From the IMG/VR virus record IMGVR_UViG_3300049076_000010, positions 1 through 37,337 of that record: a stretch of DNA of 37,337 nt; one strand, written 5' to 3'. Every line of letters starts with the position of its first letter. The first letter of the stretch is position 1. The notes beneath the pieces are model-generated. The model was not told where the DNA came from, searched no databases, and saw nothing but the letters and a program-made list of their open reading frames with translations. Below, piece after piece: positions 21,311 through 33,662 of this stretch. The DNA comes from a virus. A program made the position numbers and the translations under genes.

Positions 21311-21408
21311 GATATACCTCAGTTCTTAATAGGGTGACTATCTAAAAGCACATTAACCGATGAGAGAGATTAGGTTCGTGGGTTCGTCAGTTAGATAGTC
21401 ATAAACGT

Positions 21409-21437
21409 AAAAAACCCTATGAGGATTAGTCATAGGG
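21409..21437 (-). terminator. Strong intrinsic terminator in the late leader (tR'-like)
   Basis: The minus strand reads CCCTATGA-CTAATCC-TCATAGGG followed by TTTTTT. The stem is a perfect 8 bp. It lies about 300 nt downstream of the Q-like gene and 100 nt upstream of the first late gene. Confidence 0.75.
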
Positions 21438-21685
21438 TTGTAGTCATCTAGTACGCCGTCCAGCGTCCGAGAAAGTTAGCTTTTATACTAACAAGAAATA
21501 GTTATTGGCCTTTTATCGCTCGCCTCAAAGGTTAGGCCGACTTGTATACAAATCTTTGTTCGCAATAACTATTGCTTCTTAATACATAAATTTAGGGGGC
21601 AACTATCCTATCGTGGATTCCGCAGCCCTGTTTTTTGTCTAATGTAGATACGGTGATGTAAGTATGCGCCTACTTTTTAATAAGC

Positions 21686-21713
21686 ACAATACCTACAGAC
21701 AATATATTTTCAA
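21686..21713 (-). promoter_or_regulatory. Candidate late promoter (PR'-like)
   Basis: The minus strand reads TTGAAA-16 nt-TATTGT just downstream of the Q-like stop. A weak call in AT-rich sequence. Confidence 0.3.
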
Positions 21714-21735
21714 TTAATTATTCTAGTGAGTTTTG

Positions 21736-23936: not shown

Positions 23937-24380
23937 TTATCGTGGCCTTTCGCTGAATAAAACGCCCATACTTGCACCATCTGCATGGATTTGGTCTAGG
24001 TATTGTGAGAATCCATATTTGGTTAAATCTGTCGTACTGGCTACTAGGATAAGATTGCCTGCCGGGTCTGTGTTCCATTTCTTGTATGATTCTGGATGTT
24101 TCACTAGCTCAAACAGATACGGGTCGTTTTCTTCTGGCAGATACAAGGCTTTAAAATGCTCATGCCATACTTTGTCAATGAACTGACGGCCTTCAACGTA
24201 AGCCTGCTCTGCAATATCCTTCAATGGCCCAGCCCACATCAAGTCATTGGCGCTTTGTGAGCGCGCTTTAACTGGTTCACGCAAGACCACTTCAATGTTA
24301 TCTGGTGCATTGTCGATAGCCGCTTTCGCGGTATCACGTTGGAGTTGGCCTGTTAGTTTGATGATGCGTTGTTTAAACAT
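23937..24380 (-). CDS. ninB: NinB (lambda Orf-like) recombination mediator
   Basis: 147 aa (lambda NinB is 146 aa). RSQSANDLMWAGPLKDIAEQ parallels lambda RSLDQNRKLWACLGDVSRQ. Confidence 0.65.
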   Translation of the reverse strand: MFKQRIIKLTGQLQRDTAKAAIDNAPDNIEVVLREPVKARSQSANDLMWAGPLKDIAEQAYVEGRQFIDKVWHEHFKALYLPEENDPYLFELVKHPESYKKWNTDPAGNLILVASTTDLTKYGFSQYLDQIHADGASMGVLFSERPR

Positions 24381-25629
24381 CTTGAACCTCTAAGTTTTTG
24401 ATTTTCCAGTCTGTGCGGCGGCGTTTCATTAAATCAACGTATTTTTGGTATGCGCTAGACTTGGTTGGACTGAACCCCAAACCTTTGCACCAGTAATCGT
24501 TTTTAAGAATCGTCTTAACAACCTTACGCCATGATGGGACTTTGCCTAATGATTCAATCTTACGATCTGCTTTATCTGGTATACCGTCCGGATAACCACG
24601 CTTACTCCACCAGTTTAAATACACCGCTAGTTTGTTTTTGTAGTGTTCTCCTGTCGCGTTAGGCATGGTGTTTAATAAATGCATGGCGAAAGATTCAAAC
24701 GTATGGCCTGCTGGCAAATCAATCGAGTAGTTGCCCATGACCGCGCCTTTGTCGTTGGCATATAGCGCTCCTGTATTCGCACCAGCTACCCTTAAACAGA
24801 CTTTCGCCCACATCTGCGGCTCTACGACTTGGTATAACCACAAACCTTTCCTAGCTTCATCCCCGAATGGCTCACAGATACGCATTTGGCTTAACTTGAT
24901 TCCAGCCTGATGCATACGGTCATACAAAGCGTTGTATGGTTTGTTAAACTTACCCAAATAAGTCCAGATGTCCTTAGTTGCCATGTCGTAGATTGGATAT
25001 ACATTCCAGCAATCGTCAATGACTTTGGTTGTCCATGCTTTTTCTTGGAACTTGTCTTTCTCTCTCGCTACCGTGCGGAATCGGTTTAGGCTTTCATCTG
25101 CTCTTATGCCAACAAAGCAAGCACAGGGTTTACCATCGGCATACCATTGCCCGAACAACGGCACGAATTCTTCAAACGGCATACCTTCGTAATAAAATGG
25201 GAAGTAAGCCATATCCGTGATAGACATTGCATCCGGCTGACGTACCCATAGCTCTTGTTTCTGACTATCCCAGGAAGTCCACTCCGGCTCAATCTGGCTG
25301 CAAGCATTCCAGGTTTTAATTGGTAAGGCTATCCAGTAAGGTTCAATCCATTCTGCATATTCCTCAAACATCTGCTTGGTAAAATCTATCGTCAAACCAA
25401 TCTGGCATTCCCAGTCTAAAAACATACAGCCAATTTTACGGTTGCGTTTTTTGGCTTCTTCCATGACTAAGTGCAACATGACAGTGGAATCTTTACCGCC
25501 AGAAAAACTTATGTATATTTTTTTAAAGTTATCAAATGTAAATTCAATGCGCTGTTGCGCTGCGGTTAAAGTATCAATTCCCAATTTAATTTTTGGCATA
25601 GTTATTTTTCCAATGTTCTTTGGCTTCAT
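24373..25629 (-). CDS. PAPS-reductase-family PP-loop protein, IbrA-like
   Basis: 418 aa. PP-loop SFSGGKDST. Long C-terminal extension, as in IbrA/DUF3440-type proteins. Start may be Met11 (25599). Confidence 0.75.
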   Translation of the reverse strand: MKPKNIGKITMPKIKLGIDTLTAAQQRIEFTFDNFKKIYISFSGGKDSTVMLHLVMEEAKKRNRKIGCMFLDWECQIGLTIDFTKQMFEEYAEWIEPYWIALPIKTWNACSQIEPEWTSWDSQKQELWVRQPDAMSITDMAYFPFYYEGMPFEEFVPLFGQWYADGKPCACFVGIRADESLNRFRTVAREKDKFQEKAWTTKVIDDCWNVYPIYDMATKDIWTYLGKFNKPYNALYDRMHQAGIKLSQMRICEPFGDEARKGLWLYQVVEPQMWAKVCLRVAGANTGALYANDKGAVMGNYSIDLPAGHTFESFAMHLLNTMPNATGEHYKNKLAVYLNWWSKRGYPDGIPDKADRKIESLGKVPSWRKVVKTILKNDYWCKGLGFSPTKSSAYQKYVDLMKRRRTDWKIKNLEVQDV

Positions 25630-26044
25630 CTGCCGCTTGGTTTGCTAATGCTTGTTGCTGCTCATTTAGCATGGCCCATGCCAGTCTGGTTAAATCCTCT
25701 GGAGCATCATGATTTACCGCGCAACCTGCATGCCCTAGCCACGCCTGATGATTGATAACTGATGCACTTAAGTTAACATCTGATGAATTAGGCCAAGTAT
25801 CTACAGCTTTAATCATTGCCGCTTTAAACGCTGGAATATTCAACATTAAATCTCTGGATTGAATAATCTTTTCCCGCCTTTGCTTAACTGGGATTTGCTT
25901 CCACATATTGCCTTGATATTCTTCCATGTTGGTGAAGTGGTGATAGACGCGCTTAATCTTCAATGTCGCCCACCATTTCAATATCTGCGTAAGATTCGGC
26001 TTCCCATGCTTCGGTGAATTCTTCATTGTTGAATAACGAGGCAA
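25586..26044 (-). CDS. Hypothetical protein between the ParB-like and PAPS-reductase-like genes; start uncertain
   Basis: 152-aa ORF overlapping the ParB-like gene by 92 nt, so an internal Met (for example 25927) is likely. The motif NHQAWLGHAGCAVN is reminiscent of the N4 gp49 / Sf6 gp66 family. Low certainty. Confidence 0.45.
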   Translation of the reverse strand: MPRYSTMKNSPKHGKPNLTQILKWWATLKIKRVYHHFTNMEEYQGNMWKQIPVKQRREKIIQSRDLMLNIPAFKAAMIKAVDTWPNSSDVNLSASVINHQAWLGHAGCAVNHDAPEDLTRLAWAMLNEQQQALANQAADEAKEHWKNNYAKN

Positions 26045-26612
26045 GGCCAGTAATCTGCTGTAGCCTTAACACTTCATCAGCTTCCATGCCTAACTGTTTA
26101 GCTATTTTTTCATCAGACCAAAAGCGGCGTTTAAGCTCTACTACAATCTCGCTCATTGAATCGACTTTGTGCTTACCTCTTGCTCGATTGTGGCGAATGG
26201 TAGAGGCCATGCGGTCGCCTTTATCTTCCTGGCTTTGGCGAATCTGCACCAATGGTAAATAGCCGTGAATCCTTGCTTGAATATCTGCACATTCCTTGCC
26301 TACGCGGTGGCGGTGAAATCCATCAACCACTTCGTACTTATCCTCACTTGGCATGGATACGATCGGCTGCGTATACCCGTCAGCATCAATTGATACTCTT
26401 AGTAATTCCATTTCTACCGGAGCTACAGAGTTAGGGTTATAGTCATTAGAAAATACCGTATCGTTTTTTACCCATTTTACAAAATCTACTGGCTCTGTTT
26501 TGAACGGGCTTAAATCGTGAATAACTTGGCGTAATGTGTTGATTAAATCAACTTTGCTATCAAGCGTTTCTGATGATTCTATAGCTCGTTTAATTTGTTC
26601 TTGTAAGCTCAT
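25953..26612 (-). CDS. ParB/sulfiredoxin-domain protein, IbrB-like
   Basis: 219 aa. ParB-box-like VVDGFHRHRV and downstream STIRHNRARGKH. Confidence 0.7.
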   Translation of the reverse strand: MSLQEQIKRAIESSETLDSKVDLINTLRQVIHDLSPFKTEPVDFVKWVKNDTVFSNDYNPNSVAPVEMELLRVSIDADGYTQPIVSMPSEDKYEVVDGFHRHRVGKECADIQARIHGYLPLVQIRQSQEDKGDRMASTIRHNRARGKHKVDSMSEIVVELKRRFWSDEKIAKQLGMEADEVLRLQQITGLASLFNNEEFTEAWEAESYADIEMVGDIED

Positions 26613-26742
26613 ATTGTTCTTTCAGTTTTTGTCTTATCCACTTAGCGCGGCCCAGTTTGGTTAATTGCTTCCACTCATCATCATTGAAGCGCATGGCCCT
26701 TACTTTGGCTTTGCTGGCTATTTTTGGTCTACCTCTGTTCAT
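26590..26742 (-). CDS. Small basic ribbon-helix-helix-like protein (50 aa)
   Basis: Hand-translated: MNRGRPKIASKAKVRAMRFNDDEWKQLTKLGRAKWIRQKLKEQYELTRTN*. Beta-strand then helix pattern (VRAMRFNDDEWKQL). No SD sequence. The ATG lies 7 nt after a TATAAT box. Confidence 0.45.
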   Translation of the reverse strand: MNRGRPKIASKAKVRAMRFNDDEWKQLTKLGRAKWIRQKLKEQYELTRTN

Positions 26743-26749
26743 GTGGATA

Positions 26750-26777
26750 ATTATACCGATATTTTATTAAATGTAAA
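26750..26777 (-). promoter_or_regulatory. Candidate internal sigma70 promoter driving a leaderless transcript
   Basis: The minus strand reads TTTACA-16 nt-TATAAT-tatccac-ATG (plus-strand tgtaaa 26772-77, attata 26750-55). Confidence 0.45.
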
Positions 26778-26782
26778 TACAT

Positions 26783-26965
26783 TTATTGCTTATGCGGAAT
26801 TGATAAATAATGTACACAGTCGGTGTCTGCTAGTTTCCAGAATTCTTTAAATTGCCGCTCGTCAGGCTCTGCCTTGAATCTTAAACAGGTCTCACGATAA
26901 GCACAGACATTCCCACCCTCTGGGTTCTGGCCTTTGCATTTGCTGTTGTCTGCTGGTATTTTCAT
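26783..26965 (-). CDS. Hypothetical Cys-containing protein (60 aa)
   Basis: ORF track. Follows the helicase stop after 3 nt. Confidence 0.5.
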   Translation of the reverse strand: MKIPADNSKCKGQNPEGGNVCAYRETCLRFKAEPDERQFKEFWKLADTDCVHYLSIPHKQ

Positions 26966-26968
26966 TTT

Positions 26969-27859
26969 TTATTCTCCTTTGAATTTTTCCGTGAACATCA
27001 ATGTGCTAGGCTCAAAATCCAACATGAGCTTGCCTTCCCATTCGCCCTCGCGCTGTTTATCGCATTTCAGGATTACATCTGGCATTTCTTTAATCTTTTC
27101 CTTGTTACTCCATACCACTAAGCTGTTATGCACGTTGTCGGATATACCGCCAGAACCTTTAGCGTCATAACGACCGCTAGGCTCTGTCTCTTTACCCTTT
27201 TTGGTATGGTGTACGATGTGAATGTGTATCTTGGTTTTAATGGCTATCTCACAGATTTTCACAATGAAATCTTTTTGGGCGTTGTGATCGTCCTCACCAG
27301 GAATAACGCGCATTAAACTATCAACAATGAAATGTTTAACGCCTAAGTTCATGGCAGCGTAATAGATAACCCCATAAAGCCGTTCTGCACTCATGCCGCC
27401 CTGTTTATCAAAGATGAAGAAGTTAGCGTTGGCAAACTGTAAGAAGTCCGTATACTCGTCATAACCAATATCATGCGTGTGGGCGAATTGCTTAACCATT
27501 CGATTGATGGTTGATAGCGGTTTCATTTCAAAGCTGGCGATACATACGGTTTTTTGCTGCCTGATGAAGTTCAGCGCGAAATATCCAAGCATCATTGATT
27601 TCTTATGCCCGTTGTATCCTGACCATAAAGTCACTTCACCTTCACGGAATCTAAATAGATCGTGCATTTTAGGGAATGGCATTGTGTCGCCAGTTAATAT
27701 ATGCCCGTTTTGAATAAAATCTTCAATGTCATCGTAATACTCAATAAGGCGTTTGATTTTTTGGTTGTCCTCTTCGTTTTCACGATAGAACTTCTCAAAA
27801 TCTATATCAGGGATGCCAGCTTGTTCTAGTTTTTTTGCTAATTCATCTAACCTACTCAT
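26969..27859 (-). CDS. DnaB/T7-gp4-like replicative helicase (RecA-fold) with deviant P-loop
   Basis: 296 aa. P-loop-like SGYNGHKKS (Lys where the conserved Gly is expected). Walker B HFIVDSLM. HIVHHTKKG motif. Confidence 0.7.
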   Translation of the reverse strand: MSRLDELAKKLEQAGIPDIDFEKFYRENEEDNQKIKRLIEYYDDIEDFIQNGHILTGDTMPFPKMHDLFRFREGEVTLWSGYNGHKKSMMLGYFALNFIRQQKTVCIASFEMKPLSTINRMVKQFAHTHDIGYDEYTDFLQFANANFFIFDKQGGMSAERLYGVIYYAAMNLGVKHFIVDSLMRVIPGEDDHNAQKDFIVKICEIAIKTKIHIHIVHHTKKGKETEPSGRYDAKGSGGISDNVHNSLVVWSNKEKIKEMPDVILKCDKQREGEWEGKLMLDFEPSTLMFTEKFKGE

Positions 27860-28293
27860 TCGCCAGCCCCTTGGATTGCTTTATTGATTAATTGGTATGC
27901 TTTGTCTAGACGTTCATTTTCTTCTACGGTTAATGTCTTGCCCTTTCGTATGTCATAAGCACATAACATGACAATACGGCATTCGTGTTTGATGATTTTT
28001 AATGCATCAGTGGAATAGATTATTTGGTCAATCTTTTTGACATTGTGCGCTACTGTCTTTTCAGGGAATACATCTTCCCAATCTAAACCGATTGATGAAA
28101 GTATTGAATACGTATCACAGCCCGCAAAACAGTTAATCAGGATTCGACCGTCTGATTCTTCACGTATGGTTAAGCTGGCTGTTTTATCTGCATGGGCAGG
28201 ACAACACGCCATGTATTTGTTATCGCCGCTACGTTTAATCTTTTGTAGCCTCGATAGGATAGGCTGCAATCTCATATTGCACCTTCCAGACAT
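27856..28293 (-). CDS. Primase-type zinc-finger protein without a TOPRIM domain
   Basis: 145 aa. CCPAHADKTASLTI...ILINCFAGCD is the CHC2/P4-type primase zinc-binding pattern. ATGA-type overlap with the helicase gene. Confidence 0.6.
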   Translation of the reverse strand: MSGRCNMRLQPILSRLQKIKRSGDNKYMACCPAHADKTASLTIREESDGRILINCFAGCDTYSILSSIGLDWEDVFPEKTVAHNVKKIDQIIYSTDALKIIKHECRIVMLCAYDIRKGKTLTVEENERLDKAYQLINKAIQGAGE

Positions 28294-28955
28294 TTAGGCG
28301 TTGATTCTTCTTGCTGTAGGCCTTCAAGCCACTTAACGTTAAAGCCAGCCCAAGATTGTTCGCAACATATCTTTATAGCATTGTTCATAGTGAAGCCGTG
28401 TTTCTCAGCATGCGCTTTAATCTTATCTAACGCTGGTTGGGTTATAGCTTGTTTCTTTTCTTTCCTGACACGAATCCATGCAGAAGCGTATTGCTCTTCG
28501 ACATCCATAGCCGAGAGCAAAGCGAAAGGCGTAATGTTTTTAGGTTTTATTGGTTCTTGGTTAATGGTTAATGGTTTATGGTTAGCATTGCCTTCGGTAT
28601 GCGAACGCATTGCGATCACATTATCAGGCACGTTCTTCTTGGCCCAACGGGCTTTTGCACTATCACTAGCAGACTTAGATTTGGCATGATATGCCTCTAT
28701 TTCTATATCACAACGCTTATGAATGTATCCGTTTTCGGTCTTTAAAAAGAAGTCTTGCAATACGTTTCTAACTGCTTGCATATCATCCGCAATGCGAACG
28801 CATAGCGAACGCATAACTTTATCTTCCTCTAATGGGATGGGTAATTCAGTTAGGTAGTATTGGTCTAGTAGCTGACGATAAGCATAATGCTCTATCGGTG
28901 TTAGGTGGATTGTATCTTTGCGATAATCTGCAATGTTAAATTGGTAATAATGCAT
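28272..28955 (-). CDS. DUF1376-family replication initiation-like protein
   Basis: 227 aa. The N-terminus MHYYQFNIADYRKDTIHLTPIEHYAYRQLLDQYY matches the DUF1376 pattern (YYxfxxxDYxxDTxxLsxxExGaYxxLL). Confidence 0.65.
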   Translation of the reverse strand: MHYYQFNIADYRKDTIHLTPIEHYAYRQLLDQYYLTELPIPLEEDKVMRSLCVRIADDMQAVRNVLQDFFLKTENGYIHKRCDIEIEAYHAKSKSASDSAKARWAKKNVPDNVIAMRSHTEGNANHKPLTINQEPIKPKNITPFALLSAMDVEEQYASAWIRVRKEKKQAITQPALDKIKAHAEKHGFTMNNAIKICCEQSWAGFNVKWLEGLQQEESTPKCLEGAI

Positions 28956-29208
28956 TTGATAATCCCGATTGATTGTTGTTGTTTGTGGGTGAGTTCCAAA
29001 TCGGTGGAACAGGGTCAGCTAAACCTTGTCCCCACAACTCGTATGCTACACGAATTCCTACAAAAAGATAGGAATTAGTCCGACAGAACTACATATTTAT
29101 TTGCATTATTATGAAATAATTGGCACACTTTATGCCGTGAATATACAGCTGTTTAAGTCTCGTCGTTAATGTTGATTCTTCAACTACCTAGTATAAATAA
29201 CAGGTAGG

Positions 29209-29355
29209 TTAGGAGTTCTCTTTTAGCATCACTTTAATGAGGTGAATAAGCTTGTGTACGGCTTCTTTTTTCTCAGGTGTACGTTTACCTAGGGGAATTA
29301 GTTTTGATTGGTGTAAGGCGGCTTTGTAGCTGTCTGACTGCATAGTTTTATTCAC
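29209..29355 (-). CDS. Possible small protein (48 aa from GTG)
   Basis: Hand-translated: (V)NKTMQSDSYKAALHQSKLIPLGKRTPEKKEAVHKLIHLIKVMLKENS*. GGAG lies 6 nt before the GTG. Confidence 0.3.
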   Translation of the reverse strand: MNKTMQSDSYKAALHQSKLIPLGKRTPEKKEAVHKLIHLIKVMLKENS

Positions 29356-29419
29356 TTGTTACTCCTTTGGCACGATTTATGATTAGACCTTGAATCTTTT
29401 AATCCAAGGTGTTGAAGGG

Positions 29420-29674
29420 TTAGGTTAGTAGATGTTTAATTGCGTAAAGCTTGGTGCCATCTTGTAATTGATTAATTATTGGATGGGTTATTATTCCAGG
29501 CACTTTGCCGTAAAAGTTTATTTCAGCCACTGGCTCTCCGGCTCTTTGTGAGATAACTTCGTTGATTAGGGATTCGAGTTGAGTGCCAGTGATTTCTAGC
29601 AACTTGTCGCCTTTGCAATTTACGGCTAAAGCTATAGCGCCTTTTTCTATTGCTAGTTCCTGTAATGTTTTCAT
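29420..29674 (-). CDS. Hypothetical protein (84 aa)
   Basis: ORF track. RBS agaggtaatcaATG. Confidence 0.55.
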   Translation of the reverse strand: MKTLQELAIEKGAIALAVNCKGDKLLEITGTQLESLINEVISQRAGEPVAEINFYGKVPGIITHPIINQLQDGTKLYAIKHLLT

Positions 29675-29712
29675 TGATTACCTCTATTAAATACAAAAAT
29701 CTTTATTGTTCA

Positions 29713-29883
29713 TTAGGTGTTTAGGCTTGGCGTTGCATCCTGCGGACTCTTAAGACTTCCTGTATGACTTCTCAATAAATCATCTAAGTAACCATTTGGT
29801 TTCCCTTGCTTATAAAGAGATATTTGCAGTTCACGTAAACCGTCATATAAGTCTTTTTTATGCACTACATTTAATTCATCCAT
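29713..29883 (-). CDS. Hypothetical small protein (56 aa)
   Basis: Hand-translated: MDELNVVHKKDLYDGLRELQISLYKQGKPNGYLDDLLRSHTGSLKSPQDATPSLNT*. RBS ggagaaataaATG. Confidence 0.45.
   Translation of the reverse strand: MDELNVVHKKDLYDGLRELQISLYKQGKPNGYLDDLLRSHTGSLKSPQDATPSLNT
29720..29750 (-). repeat. Same-sense conserved element, copy Y (partner at 35664-35695 on plus)
   Basis: The minus strand reads AGAGTCCGCAG-gat-GCAACGCCAA-g-CCTAAA. Three colinear exact blocks (11+10+6 nt) are shared with the plus-strand copy. Confidence 0.65.
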
Positions 29884-30013
29884 TTATTTCTCCATATCCA
29901 ACAACATAATTAATCCAACCTAACTCAATAAACCATGCGCCTTCATAGTCATAGCCAAAAGCCAGTGTCGGCAATATAAAAAATATTCTGTGATTCTCTC
30001 TCGCGTAGATCAT
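29879..30013 (-). CDS. Hypothetical small protein (44 aa)
   Basis: Hand-translated: MIYARENHRIFFILPTLAFGYDYEGAWFIELGWINYVVGYGEING*. RBS gaggtagcgaATG. Its stop overlaps the next start. Confidence 0.4.
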
Positions 30014-30017
30014 TCGC

Positions 30018-30034
30018 TACCTCGCGTATCAGTG
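30018..30034 (-). repeat. 17-nt repeated leader element, copy 1
   Basis: The minus strand reads CACTGATACGCGAGGTA 4 nt before the ATG at 30013. Identical to 32582-32598. Confidence 0.7.
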
Positions 30035-30106
30035 CTACTTAATTTCAATGTCAAAATTACCCAAAATGTTTTGGGGTTTAATGAACCTTATTAACCTATA
30101 AAGGGT

Positions 30107-30334
30107 TTAATCATCTTGTTGATCTGTGCTAAATGAATATTCAACATTCGTGCTAATTAAAAATTCACTTTCACATGATGGACATTCTTTTGTATGCTCA
30201 CCTTCTTCGTACAAATTCCACCATTCGTTTTCAGAAATAGTACACTCTTTGCCACAATGAGGGCATTTAGGTTCATCATTGCGCCAGAATTCCAGCGGCT
30301 CTTTTGATTTAAGTAATGCTTCATTTTTCAGCAT
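30107..30334 (-). CDS. Zinc-ribbon protein (75 aa)
   Basis: ORF track. CPHCGKEC ... CPSCESEF. Confidence 0.6.
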   Translation of the reverse strand: MLKNEALLKSKEPLEFWRNDEPKCPHCGKECTISENEWWNLYEEGEHTKECPSCESEFLISTNVEYSFSTDQQDD

Positions 30335-30337
30335 GGT

Positions 30338-30697
30338 TTACTTCCCTTCTATTAATGGGCTGGCTGCTACCATTGCTTTGTCAATGGCATCATCAAGTGT
30401 AAGCCCTCGCATAACAAAGCTACTGCTATGCAATCTCCAGTAATGATTGCCGCCCATATCTAATATATTTCTTGTGCAATTTTGTTTAATCCACCGATAC
30501 TTTTCAGCATCACTCTCTGTCTCTATAGGTACCACTTTGTAACCAGCAGGTATTTGCTTGCGTAGGCGTGTTATTTCTTCTGCGGCTTCATCTATCAAAA
30601 GAGCTTCTTCTAGCGGGTCAGCTTTAGCCGAAAGAATCCTTAATCTGTGAATAATATCCATGTTACTTATCCTCTTTGTTAGTAATGGCTTGGTCAA
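30338..30697 (-). CDS. Hypothetical protein (119 aa)
   Basis: ORF track. Coupled to the upstream gene. Confidence 0.55.
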   Translation of the reverse strand: MTKPLLTKRISNMDIIHRLRILSAKADPLEEALLIDEAAEEITRLRKQIPAGYKVVPIETESDAEKYRWIKQNCTRNILDMGGNHYWRLHSSSFVMRGLTLDDAIDKAMVAASPLIEGK

Positions 30698-31179
30698 TCT
30701 ATTAATCCACTCTTCTTAGACGATGCCGCTATCCAATCAGGGCCACGAACTTCTTCTAGGCCGCCAATTAAGTCTGATTCTTCTGGAAATCGCATTCCAT
30801 CATTGGCGCTAGATGGTTGCCATGTGCCATCTAATCTATCCCCATCAGGTGTAGGTGCGGCGGCAGCAGTTAGTAGCGCGAGTAGTTCTTCTAGCGAATT
30901 AGTGCTTTCGCCTTCTTCGTCGTTATATGTGGCTGTTTCGCGTAGGCATTCGATAACATGTTTCAATTCGGCTACGCCTCTATGCTTCACCACAACTGCA
31001 TAGCCATCACTATTAGGTAGCTGAGTATCCCCTTTTACATTTTCAGCAAAAGCTATAACACTAGGTAATAAGCACTCAAGCCTGTAAGCGTAATCGCCCA
31101 TGTTCTCGCTTTTGGCGTTGTGTATCTCGTCTTTGAATACATTGCTAACCGCTTCGATAATCCGTTGTTTAATACTCAT
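30694..31179 (-). CDS. Hypothetical protein (161 aa)
   Basis: ORF track. Confidence 0.55.
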   Translation of the reverse strand: MSIKQRIIEAVSNVFKDEIHNAKSENMGDYAYRLECLLPSVIAFAENVKGDTQLPNSDGYAVVVKHRGVAELKHVIECLRETATYNDEEGESTNSLEELLALLTAAAAPTPDGDRLDGTWQPSSANDGMRFPEESDLIGGLEEVRGPDWIAASSKKSGLID

Positions 31180-31185
31180 GATTGT

Positions 31186-31428
31186 TTATCCCTTAAATTC
31201 AATTGATTTTATGCGCTCAATGGCTTCATCTATATCCATACGGTGCCATTCCCTGTTTTCAATATTGGCGACAATTTCTGTAGGGTCTAATCCACCGCGC
31301 CTGTTTAACATTTCAAGAGACTGATAATGGTTTTTCTGCGCCCATTCTTCGTTAAGCGCATCCCAATTAATAAACTTCGGACAATTTTTATAATTTCTAT
31401 TATTTAGAACTCTAAACGCGACGCTCAT
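31186..31428 (-). CDS. Hypothetical protein (80 aa)
   Basis: ORF track. Confidence 0.55.
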   Translation of the reverse strand: MSVAFRVLNNRNYKNCPKFINWDALNEEWAQKNHYQSLEMLNRRGGLDPTEIVANIENREWHRMDIDEAIERIKSIEFKG

Positions 31429-31431
31429 TGT

Positions 31432-31896
31432 TTATCCCTTAGTAATGGCTTGGTCGATGATTTCCCTAGCTGGCGAGGATGGGTAGAAGTAAACGCCGTG
31501 GTTAGTTGTTAACTCAACATAACCATTATGCTTATCAAGCCAATCTAGCCGCTTAGTGTCCGCATCCTGCTCTGCTTTAGAGTGAGAGGCGCGGTATTGC
31601 CATGCTTCCCAAGCAGTTATTTTGCGTTCGGTCATATAGTCTTCTGCCCAAAATTCTTCAATCCTTCTGGCTTTGAATTGTTCTGGCACGTCTTTCAACC
31701 AATAATCCATAAACGCTTTACGTTCATCCACTGGCTCTGCATCGCTATTGGTTAGCAGTTCAGCGAATTTGAATATTGCTTCAAGAATGTCGTTGTCGTG
31801 CCGGTTTCTTACTCTAACAATGGGCTTTCCCGTAATTTCATAAAGTAATCCCGCCTCTTTAGCGGCTGCTATTACTTTGTCTTGTGTTAGGTTCAT
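31432..31896 (-). CDS. Hypothetical protein (154 aa)
   Basis: ORF track. ATGA overlap with the upstream gene. Confidence 0.55.
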   Translation of the reverse strand: MNLTQDKVIAAAKEAGLLYEITGKPIVRVRNRHDNDILEAIFKFAELLTNSDAEPVDERKAFMDYWLKDVPEQFKARRIEEFWAEDYMTERKITAWEAWQYRASHSKAEQDADTKRLDWLDKHNGYVELTTNHGVYFYPSSPAREIIDQAITKG

Positions 31897-32267
31897 GATG
31901 TAGCCTTTGCGATGGCTTGCTCAGTTATGTCGTCTATTGCGCCTATGATTGTTTCAAAGCTAATTTCATCTTTTCTTACCCATTGCTGAATATCTTTAAT
32001 TACTTGTAGCAATTCCGCATTCCGTTGTTTTAGTTCTTCGTAAGTTTGGCTAGGATTTTCAATAGCGTTAATGCCTTCCAGATGGCCTGTAGCGATTCCA
32101 GCGCAGGCATTTACACATGCCACAATGCGTTTAGCGTTGGCAGCTCCAATCCCATCATAAGCATCAGTATGGTTGCAATAAGCAATTGGAGTATGGCCTT
32201 CGGTGATAACGTAATGGCTATCAGCTATCCAAGGTTCTTTTGTATGTTCTTCTTTAGTAGGTTGCAT
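31893..32267 (-). CDS. Hypothetical protein (124 aa)
   Basis: ORF track. The motif ANAKRIVACVNACAGI is common in small lambdoid early proteins. Confidence 0.55.
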   Translation of the reverse strand: MQPTKEEHTKEPWIADSHYVITEGHTPIAYCNHTDAYDGIGAANAKRIVACVNACAGIATGHLEGINAIENPSQTYEELKQRNAELLQVIKDIQQWVRKDEISFETIIGAIDDITEQAIAKATS

Positions 32268-32683: not shown

Positions 32684-32863
32684 CTATTCACCAAGCTTTC
32701 TAAAATGATTAGCTAACTTTTCAATCAAGCTTGCTTTTCCATCACCAGTATTAATGATGTTGTAAAGATTCTGCTTGCTCGTACCTATTGCGCTTGCTAC
32801 TGCTGGCACATTTATTTGCTCGTCTTTAAGCTTGCGCAGCACATATTCTAATAGCGTTTCCAT
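32684..32863 (-). CDS. Cro-like small helix-turn-helix regulator (59 aa)
   Basis: Hand-translated: METLLEYVLRKLKDEQINVPAVASAIGTSKQNLYNIINTGDGKASLIEKLANHFRKLGE*. HTH at VPAVASAIGTSKQNLYNIIN. RBS ggagaagcaATG. First gene after the divergent promoter region. Confidence 0.6.
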   Translation of the reverse strand: METLLEYVLRKLKDEQINVPAVASAIGTSKQNLYNIINTGDGKASLIEKLANHFRKLGE

Positions 32864-32950: not shown

Positions 32951-32978
32951 TTGACATTAAGTTAAATATCGTTAAACT
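32951..32978 (+). promoter_or_regulatory. Early promoter for the plus-strand operon
   Basis: The plus strand reads TTGACA (32951-56), a 16-nt spacer, then TAAACT (32973-78). Divergent from the Cro-like promoter. Confidence 0.55.
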
Positions 32979-33059
32979 GGGAACCACTGAGACGCAACTC
33001 GTAAGATGAAATAAGCGTCAGCTAAGTAATCAGGACGGTTGTTTCTCAGTGTTTTATAG

Positions 33060-33222
33060 AATCTGTATTAAGTAGGTGTAATACGTAGGCGATACGGTGG
33101 AATTTGTATTGAACATGAATTTCTCATGTCTCCATCAAAGGCCCGATGGGTGAAATTAATAATGCTACACAGTTAAAGGCAACAAGCTAGGTTCGCATCT
33201 AGCCACCTACTTAATACAGATT
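33060..33222 (+). ncRNA. Candidate structured RNA domain (or MITE/inverton-like DNA element) closed by a perfect 19-bp inverted repeat
   Basis: aatctgtattaagtaggtg (33060-78) is the exact reverse complement of cacctacttaatacagatt (33204-22). The 125 nt between them contain four local hairpins (33084-96, 33114-28, 33132-49, 33186-203). No ORF. Confidence 0.35.
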
Positions 33223-33385
33223 TGCTAATCATTTAAAACAGGTGGATATAACTATCATTAAGGGGATAGATAGTAATTTCCAAAGGTTACTTTTATATGT
33301 CCACCGCTTTTAGATGATTAGAAAGAATCCTTGCAAGGTAGTTAGAAATTATAGCGGTTTAATCCGTACGTGACGATTTCACGTG

Positions 33386-33459
33386 AGTATCTAGCCTGTA
33401 GCACATGGAGGTAAGCCGAGAGGTTAGGCCGTAGAAGTGTGTTATGGACTATGTATTTA
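33386..33459 (+). repeat. Conserved non-coding element, copy B (partner at 1966-2043)
   Basis: Carries the same three colinear blocks as copy A. It ends 20 nt before the ATG at 33480. Confidence 0.7.
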
Positions 33460-33479
33460 GATGATTTAATAGGAGAGAG

Positions 33480-33662
33480 ATGATGGCAAAAACCAAGATA
33501 GAGAATTTTACTTATTTGGCAATAGATTTGGATGGGTACACAGGGCTTGGTGAAACAGTTAAAGACGCATGCCATGCCCTTGAAGAAAGAAGCGAAGGTT
33601 ATGTTCGTGACTTTACTTTTTACAGATTAACTAGAATCAATGTTGAATTGATAGAGGTTTAA
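33480..33662 (+). CDS. Hypothetical protein (60 aa), first gene of the plus-strand early operon
   Basis: ORF track. RBS aggagagagATG. Confidence 0.5.
   Translation: MMAKTKIENFTYLAIDLDGYTGLGETVKDACHALEERSEGYVRDFTFYRLTRINVELIEV

Follow-up and report, generated by a model that had tools for sequence, protein, structure and literature searches.

The stretch of DNA analysed here, hereafter the window, comprises the full 37,337 nucleotides (nt) of the IMG/VR virus record IMGVR_UViG_3300049076_000010, a circularly permuted genome of ~37 kb whose structural genes (portal, coat, gp10-like protein, and terminase) are P22-like. We studied a perfect 19-base-pair (bp) inverted repeat at positions 33060-33222, which is located within a 616-nt gene-free region separating two divergent genes, a Cro/repressor-like regulator at the head of the leftward operon and an orphan gene at the head of the rightward operon (Table 1). 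Homologues of the regulator, 53-83% identical, each adjoin a divergent intergenic region, and the -35 block GGTATTGAC(A) is kept in most relatives of the regulator locus, as seen in the alignment. The rightward transcript probably starts near 32985. Its leader is untranslated over ~495 nt, and the + strand RNA from ~32985 folds into four consecutive closed domains, D1 to D4, of which D2 contains the inverted repeat. No close relative of the window was found among cultured phages, and megablast of 23 kb of it gave nothing useful. Likewise, BLASTN of the 616-nt region against INPHARED returned no match, the 60-amino-acid (aa) open reading frame (ORF) downstream of the leader has no relative among 5.8 billion proteins, and the small proteins flanking the leader have none in IMG/VR.

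The two arms of the repeat, AATCTGTATTAAGTAGGTG (33060-33078) and CACCTACTTAATACAGATT (33204-33222), are 100% reverse-complementary and are separated by a spacer of 125 nt, as the preliminary description of this DNA had reported. Its statement that such a pair is not expected by chance also held: the longest perfect inverted repeat in 200 block-shuffled windows measured 10-15 bp compared to the 19 bp observed, and no other perfect inverted repeat of at least 13 nt (loop of up to 400 nt) exists anywhere in the window. When up to three mismatches were allowed, the 19-mer arm was found at only two sites in the window, and two matches occurred in none of 100 dinucleotide shuffles. In the + strand RNA, an extra G.U pair (33059/33223) lengthens the helix to 20 bp, so that it consists of 19 Watson-Crick pairs and one G.U pair and has the approximately two turns of unbroken double-stranded RNA that characterize an RNase III substrate. 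The 163-nt segment has a predicted folding energy of -55.0 kcal/mol (z = -5.7), and all four short hairpins proposed earlier for the 125-nt core are present. The minimum-free-energy fold of the single sequence chooses a different first hairpin; the comparative data presented below favour the one originally proposed. For the leader as a whole, the predicted folding energy is -159.8 kcal/mol on the + strand (z = -7.2) and -125.9 kcal/mol on the - strand, a difference that arises because G.U pairs exist on the + strand only.

In order to identify homologues, we built a covariance model, R1, from the single sequence of D2. Relatives collected via the helicase and AAA_24 genes (L003-L089) shared no leader sequence with the window, and R1 found no match in 88 loci of distant relatives. 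It did match L109:195-378(-) with 27.2 bits and an E-value of 2.5e-6. L109 is a small contig that encodes a regulator 76% identical to that of the window, and its element lies between two small genes of the equivalent operon in sense orientation. The closing helix, P1, differs between the two phages at eight of 20 pairs, comprising four double compensatory changes, three one-sided changes that preserve pairing, and one mismatch; two of the three one-sided changes yield G.U pairs on the sense strand only. The first and the last hairpin of the preliminary description are also conserved in L109, with one compensatory change each, and the centre between them could not be aligned. Since MAFFT misaligned the two sequences, we constructed a second model, R2, from the window and L109 with the variable centre masked with N. 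Additional copies were detected with R2 in L036, L038, and L040; on the window itself, the model scored 114 bits (+ strand) compared to 39.7 bits (- strand). Searching IMG/VR with a pattern derived from the conserved 5' block gave matches in at least 120 contigs, and R2 confirmed 63 full elements among the 80 loci returned by the 5'-motif pattern. All 63 contain the 3' block GCCGGAGAUCAGCACCGGCCACC, which was not part of the search pattern. A first, extended pattern (TAAGYAGGTG...) had only a single match, a 21-nt exact copy of the P1/P2 5' motif at the start of an IMG/VR contig (L114:1-21) that continues into unrelated coding sequence and is maybe a contig-end artefact.

The family members share a common architecture. 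P1 contains an invariant inner GGUG...CACC and is followed by a 3-nt AAU junction, by hairpin P2 with the consensus GCGYA-GGCUGA-URCGC, by a centre that is hypervariable in length, and by hairpin P4 with the consensus GCCGG-AGAUCAGCA-CCGGC, which is preceded by an A-rich junction, reaches P1 without a spacer, and stacks on its 3' strand. The cores range from 78 to 168 nt with a median of ~120 nt, and compact members of 84-90 nt fold as plain cloverleaves. In the window, the inner GGUG...CACC corresponds to 33075-33078 pairing with 33204-33207; the respective alignment columns (23-26 and 247-250) are identical in 59-64 of 65 sequences across the family. Positions 33079-33096 of the window (UAAUA CGUA GGCGA UACG) align with the junction and P2 of the 63 members, and P4 at 33186-33203, with CACC immediately after it, lies in the block that was not used for retrieval. 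The first (cgta-ggcga-tacg) and the last (gctag-gttcgcat-ctagc) of the four hairpins proposed earlier are thus the family-defining P2 and P4, and the middle two fall into the variable centre.

Table 1. Features of the divergent intergenic region and its flanking genes in the window.
Feature	Position	Strand	Basis
59-aa Cro/repressor-like regulator, first gene of the leftward operon	32684-32863	-	ORF; weak PHROG match to transcriptional repressor
Sigma-70-type promoter of the rightward early operon, TTGACA-16-TAAACT	32951-32978	+	10/12 consensus match
D1, closed hairpin domain of the leader	32985-33054	+	Fold; in L113 with a different, still-pairing stem (read by eye)
D2, structured element under study	33059-33223	+	Fold
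P1, 5' strand (G plus left arm of the inverted repeat)	33059-33078	+	Aligned to family P1
Junction J1/2, UAAUA (family consensus AAU + R)	33079-33083	+	Alignments
Hairpin P2, CGUA-GGCGA-UACG	33084-33096	+	Conserved in 63 members, U-A to C-G covariation
Variable centre with local hairpins 33113-33129 and 33131-33150	33097-33185	+	Length and sequence not conserved in the family
Hairpin P4, GCUAG-GUUCGCAU-CUAGC, abutting the P1 3' strand	33186-33203	+	Conserved 3' block, covariation
P1, 3' strand (right arm of the inverted repeat plus U)	33204-33223	+	Covariation
D3, leader domain closed by a 14+10-bp stem whose G.U pairs exist on the + strand only	33225-33322	+	Fold; nearly identical in L113
D4, invariant 27-nt box (33323-33349, with palindrome CCTTGCAAGG) and long hairpin (~33384-33460)	33323-33460	+	Homologous modules elsewhere
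60-aa orphan, first gene of the rightward operon, AGGAGAGAG ribosome-binding site upstream	33480-33662	+	

Covariation within the family is strong. In the family alignment, 97.1% of the paired cells are able to pair, compared to 80.2% in a shuffled control and 33-47% in slid controls. Double changes were observed in 23 of 29 pairs of the family and in 17 of the 20 pairs of P1. Moreover, a MAFFT and RNAalifold run that is independent of the model recovered P1, P2, and P4, with nine of 17 pairs compensated. The element is also directional, as P2 is always located 5' and P4 always 3' in the 63 members. From these comparisons, the family is predicted to adopt a four-way cloverleaf-like junction formed by the + strand RNA, and the inverted repeat very probably represents P1 of this conserved RNA family.

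A further feature concerns the loops of P2 and P4, which are complementary (GCUGA:UCAGC) in 41 members. In the window, the predicted pairing involves GCGA (33089-33092) and UCGC (33193-33196). The P4 variant UCGC occurs in all three members with a GGCGA loop in P2 (the window, L038, and L152) and in none of the 51 others. This co-variation can be read as the concerted loss of one base pair and supports a tertiary kissing-loop contact. The P2 and P4 loops thus probably kiss, in what would be the equivalent of the tRNA elbow.

The length of P1 sets the window apart from most of the family. P1 comprises 7-9 bp in most unique members, and 20 contiguous pairs were found only in the window and in L179; in L109 and ~8 other members, a mismatch, a bulge, or an internal loop separates P1 from a second helix of ~10 bp. 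The perfect 19-mer is therefore an extended form of a normally short closing stem and not a family trait, and its perfection probably reflects a young or homogenised extension rather than a family requirement. One of the three explanations offered in the preliminary description, an RNA multi-helix junction closed by a duplex of two turns, hence captured the structure correctly, including a closing helix that covaries among relatives. The membership of this junction in a large family of phage RNAs, in which 7-9 bp are normal for the closing helix, was not visible from the single sequence.

A comparison of related phages with and without the segment, as had been proposed earlier, is provided by L113, a 38-kb phage that we reached via the sole homologue of a 153-aa downstream ORF. 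It possesses the same leader minus D2: homologous D1 and D3 domains are present (L113:7128-7320), and D1 is joined directly to D3. A MAFFT global alignment of the window and L113 was wrong for D1, the conservation of which was read by eye. Given its presence here, its absence from the homologous leader of L113, and its different intergenic site in L109, the element is cassette-like. In every contig fetched, the intergenic region beside the regulator homologues spans ~60-330 nt, mostly ~150 nt, compared to 616 nt in the window, and the homology covers the regulator and the -35 block and ends near 32960-33000; ~460 nt of the leader are therefore additional in this phage.

D4 shows a distribution of its own. 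Its 27-nt box, AGAATCCTTGCAAGGTAGTTAGAAATT, is followed by a G.U-rich hairpin, and homologues of the domain occur at unrelated intergenic sites (L091:1069-1229(-) and L112:8696-8844(-)), where they start near the preceding stop codon. A third site, L111:5575-5601(-), shares the 27-nt box only and has a tRNA-Met gene downstream. The D4 hairpin is preserved through seven one-sided, wobble-compatible changes, and D4 may be a second mobile RNA or regulatory module. Overall, the 616-nt "promoter region" of this phage is a mosaic of at least four exchangeable RNA modules.

The conserved blocks of the family were found in 146 cultured-phage records, without an RNA annotation at any listed match. The hosts of these phages belong to Klebsiella, Escherichia (including Stx2-converting phages and mEp460), Pseudomonas, Salmonella, and Erwinia. 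Among 5,426 complete E. coli genomes, 818 (~15%) contain the mEp460-type subtype, at 953 places, of which 237 are on plasmids, perhaps phage-plasmids; none of the 12 matches listed in E. coli has a feature annotated under it. In mEp460 itself, the copy is located ~400 nt downstream of a cI-like repressor gene in a 720-nt stretch without a + strand gene. Two "hypothetical proteins" annotated on the opposite strand (NC_019716.1, 30855-31408) overlap this element and its leader and are probably spurious calls.

Clustering of the neighbouring genes revealed no obligate protein partner, and the downstream genes are mutually unrelated. Some associations did recur: a lysozyme gene lies a median of ~0.7 kb downstream at ten loci (same strand in nine of 11 copies), an S24 repressor gene ~0.4 kb upstream at eight loci, and a same-strand tRNA gene directly downstream in seven of 59 unique members, in each case co-oriented with the element (7/7). 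Intrinsic terminators are weakly enriched downstream (11/57 compared to 6/57 upstream), and L036 has a strong one ~40 nt after the element. Some phages contain two family copies: in L155 (3130-3261 and 3573-3689) they are arranged in tandem with a tRNA-Met gene ~10 nt after the second copy, and in L115 (4588-4711 and 6434-6580) they lie on opposite strands. In many members (e.g. L147, L163, L188, L141, and L133), a GCTCTTTCCG-like motif immediately precedes P1 on its 5' side, which might belong to a more extensive structure or act as a promoter or processing signal.

We compared the family with known structured RNAs, beginning with tRNA and the tRNA-like stable RNAs of phage tRNA clusters such as the "species 1/2" RNAs of T4. 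The resemblance to tRNA extends to several features: the junction is four-way with its 5' and 3' ends paired in a 7-9-bp stem, the 5-bp 3' hairpin abuts the end stem without a spacer as the T arm abuts the acceptor stem, the 5' hairpin is set off by a 3-nt junction in the manner of the D arm, and the loops of the two hairpins are predicted to interact like the D/T elbow. With 84-90 nt, and with some members directly upstream of same-strand tRNA genes, the compact members also resemble the tRNA-type RNAs of phage clusters. In contrast to tRNA, the loop-loop contact is of the Watson-Crick type (GCUGA:UCAGC) and not of the G18/G19-psi55/C56 type, the centre is hypervariable, and the acceptor-like stem of the window has 20 bp. 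We also considered whether the P4 loop is a strict T-loop and discarded this idea, since position "54" is an A in most members. ARAGORN called no tRNA or tmRNA at any element, the Rfam tRNA model did not match the 183-nt query even with E-values up to 10, no CCA follows P1, and no anticodon-type arm with a 7-nt loop is present; the element is not a tRNA. Rfam 15 yielded no family match at gathering or permissive thresholds for the window and nine other member loci. The family is apparently unannotated and may be among the 8,495 anonymous IMG/VR candidates of an earlier study (PMC10690425). Upstream of one compact member, at a distance of ~190 nt, a separate region (L133:958-1061) gave weak Rfam matches to permuted tmRNA (E = 0.08) and beta-tmRNA (E = 0.22). 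The matched stretch resembles a tmRNA tag frame (GCAAACGAUGAUGUUGUUCUGAUGGCGGCGUAAUAG), and no tmRNA was called in it by ARAGORN.

Another conceivable relative is YrlA, a bacterial Y RNA-like tRNA mimic bound by Ro60/Rsr, whose 5' and 3' ends form the Ro-binding stem, whose T arm precedes its D arm, and whose acceptor-like stem is a capped stem-loop (PMC4201824). YrlA is encoded beside Ro60; the YrlA family extends to phages and includes some substrates of RNase P (PMC4201824). Both are non-coding RNAs that combine a long terminal stem with arms resembling the D and T arms. However, the strand topology differs (PMC4201824), the loci of our family have no recurrent protein neighbour, and Rfam gave no match, which rules out a YrlA or Y RNA identity. 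A TROVE (Ro60) neighbour was absent among the 10 annotated of the top 14 neighbour clusters. Several other candidates were rejected: Pas small RNAs, which are of the Hfq- and terminator-type; a retron msr/msd, for which there is no reverse transcriptase; a hammerhead ribozyme, as its CUGAUG lies in a covarying loop and is missing from the window; and, after a look at each, a group I intron, a replication origin, and a pac site.

With moderate confidence, we favour the interpretation that D2 is a tRNA-shaped stable RNA module with an extended P1 that functions as a stalk for RNase III-type processing or for insulation. The module would be transcribed on the + strand within the untranslated leader of the rightward early operon, and a stable tRNA-shaped RNA would be cut out of, or insulated within, the longer transcript. 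Most members have a short P1 and some are located in tRNA gene arrays; therefore, we propose that such members would be treated in the same way as precursor tRNAs. The extended P1 of ~20 bp, seen in this phage and about ten others, would provide a two-turn duplex acting as an RNase III-type stalk, as in rRNA precursors; alternatively, it might be a clamp by which the module stays folded independently of D1 and D3. Well-known stalks of this type are the stems of rRNA precursors, the lambda N leader, and T7 R1.1. The window shares with them an unbroken duplex of ~20 bp that flanks a structured RNA inside a longer transcript. In contrast, natural phage RNase III sites are local hairpins with internal loops, and the 7-9-bp P1 of most family members could not be a substrate. 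Processing of the extended P1 by RNase III is a tentative proposal. As a partner of the mature RNA, our best guess would be a host factor recognizing the tRNA shape; a function as a tRNA mimic is, in our view, rather doubtful.

Several points weigh against this interpretation. As neither ARAGORN nor the tRNA and tmRNA models of Rfam recognize the element, "tRNA-shaped" describes its topology alone, and tRNA genes adjoin only 12% of the members. We infer both the cleavage by RNase III and the formation of a discrete stable RNA. The members were ascertained via the 5' motif, so that the conservation of P2 arises partly by construction, the family alignment was fitted by the model, and the E-values are rough owing to a shortened calibration. 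Finally, other members are located in early-operon leaders (as in the window and mEp460) or ~0.7 kb upstream of lysis genes, and a cis-acting role in transcription fits these leader and pre-lysis positions equally well.

Such a role constitutes the main alternative, which we consider unlikely overall. The module would act in cis on RNA polymerase as a processive antiterminator or anti-pausing RNA, comparable to put of HK022, and early or late transcription would pass terminators without an N-like protein. The element of the window lies ~75 nt downstream of the early promoter, the mEp460 copy is placed where a lambdoid pL leader would be, and the lysozyme genes that follow at ten loci as well as the terminator past the L036 element are also in line with this role. 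The HK022 putL and putR RNAs, which are also encoded in cis by a phage, act independently of protein just after the early promoters; they comprise ~70 nt with two stems in a V shape with a triplex (PMC9378689). The family differs from them in its four-way junction and in the many members outside leaders, and R2 did not match positions 24000-32000 of HK022, which were chosen so as to cover the immunity region, the expected location of putL and putR. We thus rejected an identity with HK022-type put. The weak enrichment of downstream terminators also argues against a cis-acting role, as do those members that lie in tRNA arrays, at operon ends, or, as in L109, between small genes and do not obviously qualify as leader elements. 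Moreover, L113 uses the same leader without the element.

It is quite improbable that the element is a ligand-sensing, riboswitch-like aptamer. In purine riboswitches, a junction is closed by P1 and carries two hairpins with kissing loops. The family likewise combines P1, hairpins with pairing loops, and conserved junction residues (AAU and A-rich), and some members are located upstream of terminators or genes. It differs in its four-way junction with a variable arm, in the absence of a conserved expression platform, and in its unrelated downstream genes. Furthermore, the very stable 20-bp P1 of the window could hardly switch, the centre is hypervariable with cores of 78-168 nt, and members occur in tRNA arrays.

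The other two explanations of the preliminary description concern DNA and were rejected. According to the first, which is very improbable, the 163 bp are a miniature inverted-repeat transposable element (MITE) that was inserted into the leader and whose arms are terminal inverted repeats bound by a transposase. The perfect 19-bp repeat, the nature of the segment as an indel relative to L113, and the related elements at different intergenic sites in different phages would suit this view. However, no target-site duplication is present at either junction of the window, with its flanks ...TTTTATAG and TGCTAATC..., or at L109. The search for dispersed copies proposed earlier found none: the segment is present in a single copy in the window, the 19-mer arm has no copy in 185,579 species genomes or in IMG/VR, a relaxed two-ended 13+13-nt pattern has none either, and the metagenomes yielded one match only, which consists of a single arm at the beginning of a coding sequence. 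In addition, the arms differ among the members and yet remain complementary, with G.U pairs on the sense strand and mostly 7-9 bp, and the conserved parts are internal (P2 and P4) and directional. The second explanation, that the 125-bp core is a DNA switch flipped by a host recombinase at the 19-bp repeats, is barely conceivable: the short segment has the perfect flanking repeats of an inverton, and a flipped core would point a weak terminator-like hairpin with a T-tract at the operon (~1.2 such sites are expected by chance), but no integrase, invertase, or other recombinase domain was detected among 30 ORFs scanned, a second, independent assembly of this phage gave an identical orientation, the polarity is conserved in 63 members with the family model scoring far better on one strand, the tRNA genes just downstream are co-oriented, and 125 bp is short for recombinase-mediated looping.

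In the course of this study, we made additional observations outside the leader. The window contains a second large gene-free gap of 425 nt between - strand genes (21311-21735), which harbours a 27-nt inverted repeat of 81% identity (21481-21507/21563-21589) and a palindrome (21539-21554). A PAPS-reductase/DUF3440 protein near a weak, sub-threshold ParB_N match (24373-25629 and 25953-26612) looks like a DNA-modification module. In two relatives of the regulator locus, L102 (3120-4352) and L103 (3105-4337), an IS605 OrfB/TnpB (Cas12f-like) gene is inserted in the replication module and is absent from the sister contigs.

At the least, the family merits an Rfam entry, which would stop spurious ORF calls across the element. 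A further-reaching idea, which is speculative and probably not correct in full, is that the members form an undescribed class of phage-borne tRNA mimics. RNase III or RNase P would release them, as free-standing tRNA-shaped RNAs, from tRNA arrays or operon leaders, and they would bind, or act as decoys for, a host factor recognizing tRNA. If true, the targets might be a defence nuclease that attacks tRNAs, an enzyme that modifies or repairs them, or RNase P, to the advantage of the phage or prophage, and the family would represent an abundant, overlooked regulator in approximately 15% of the complete E. coli genomes, including Stx-converting phages. Whether as a tRNA mimic or as a transcription element made of RNA only, it would be a new player in phage-host RNA biology, and its presence in cultured phages and E. 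coli genomes makes the family directly testable in laboratory lysogens.

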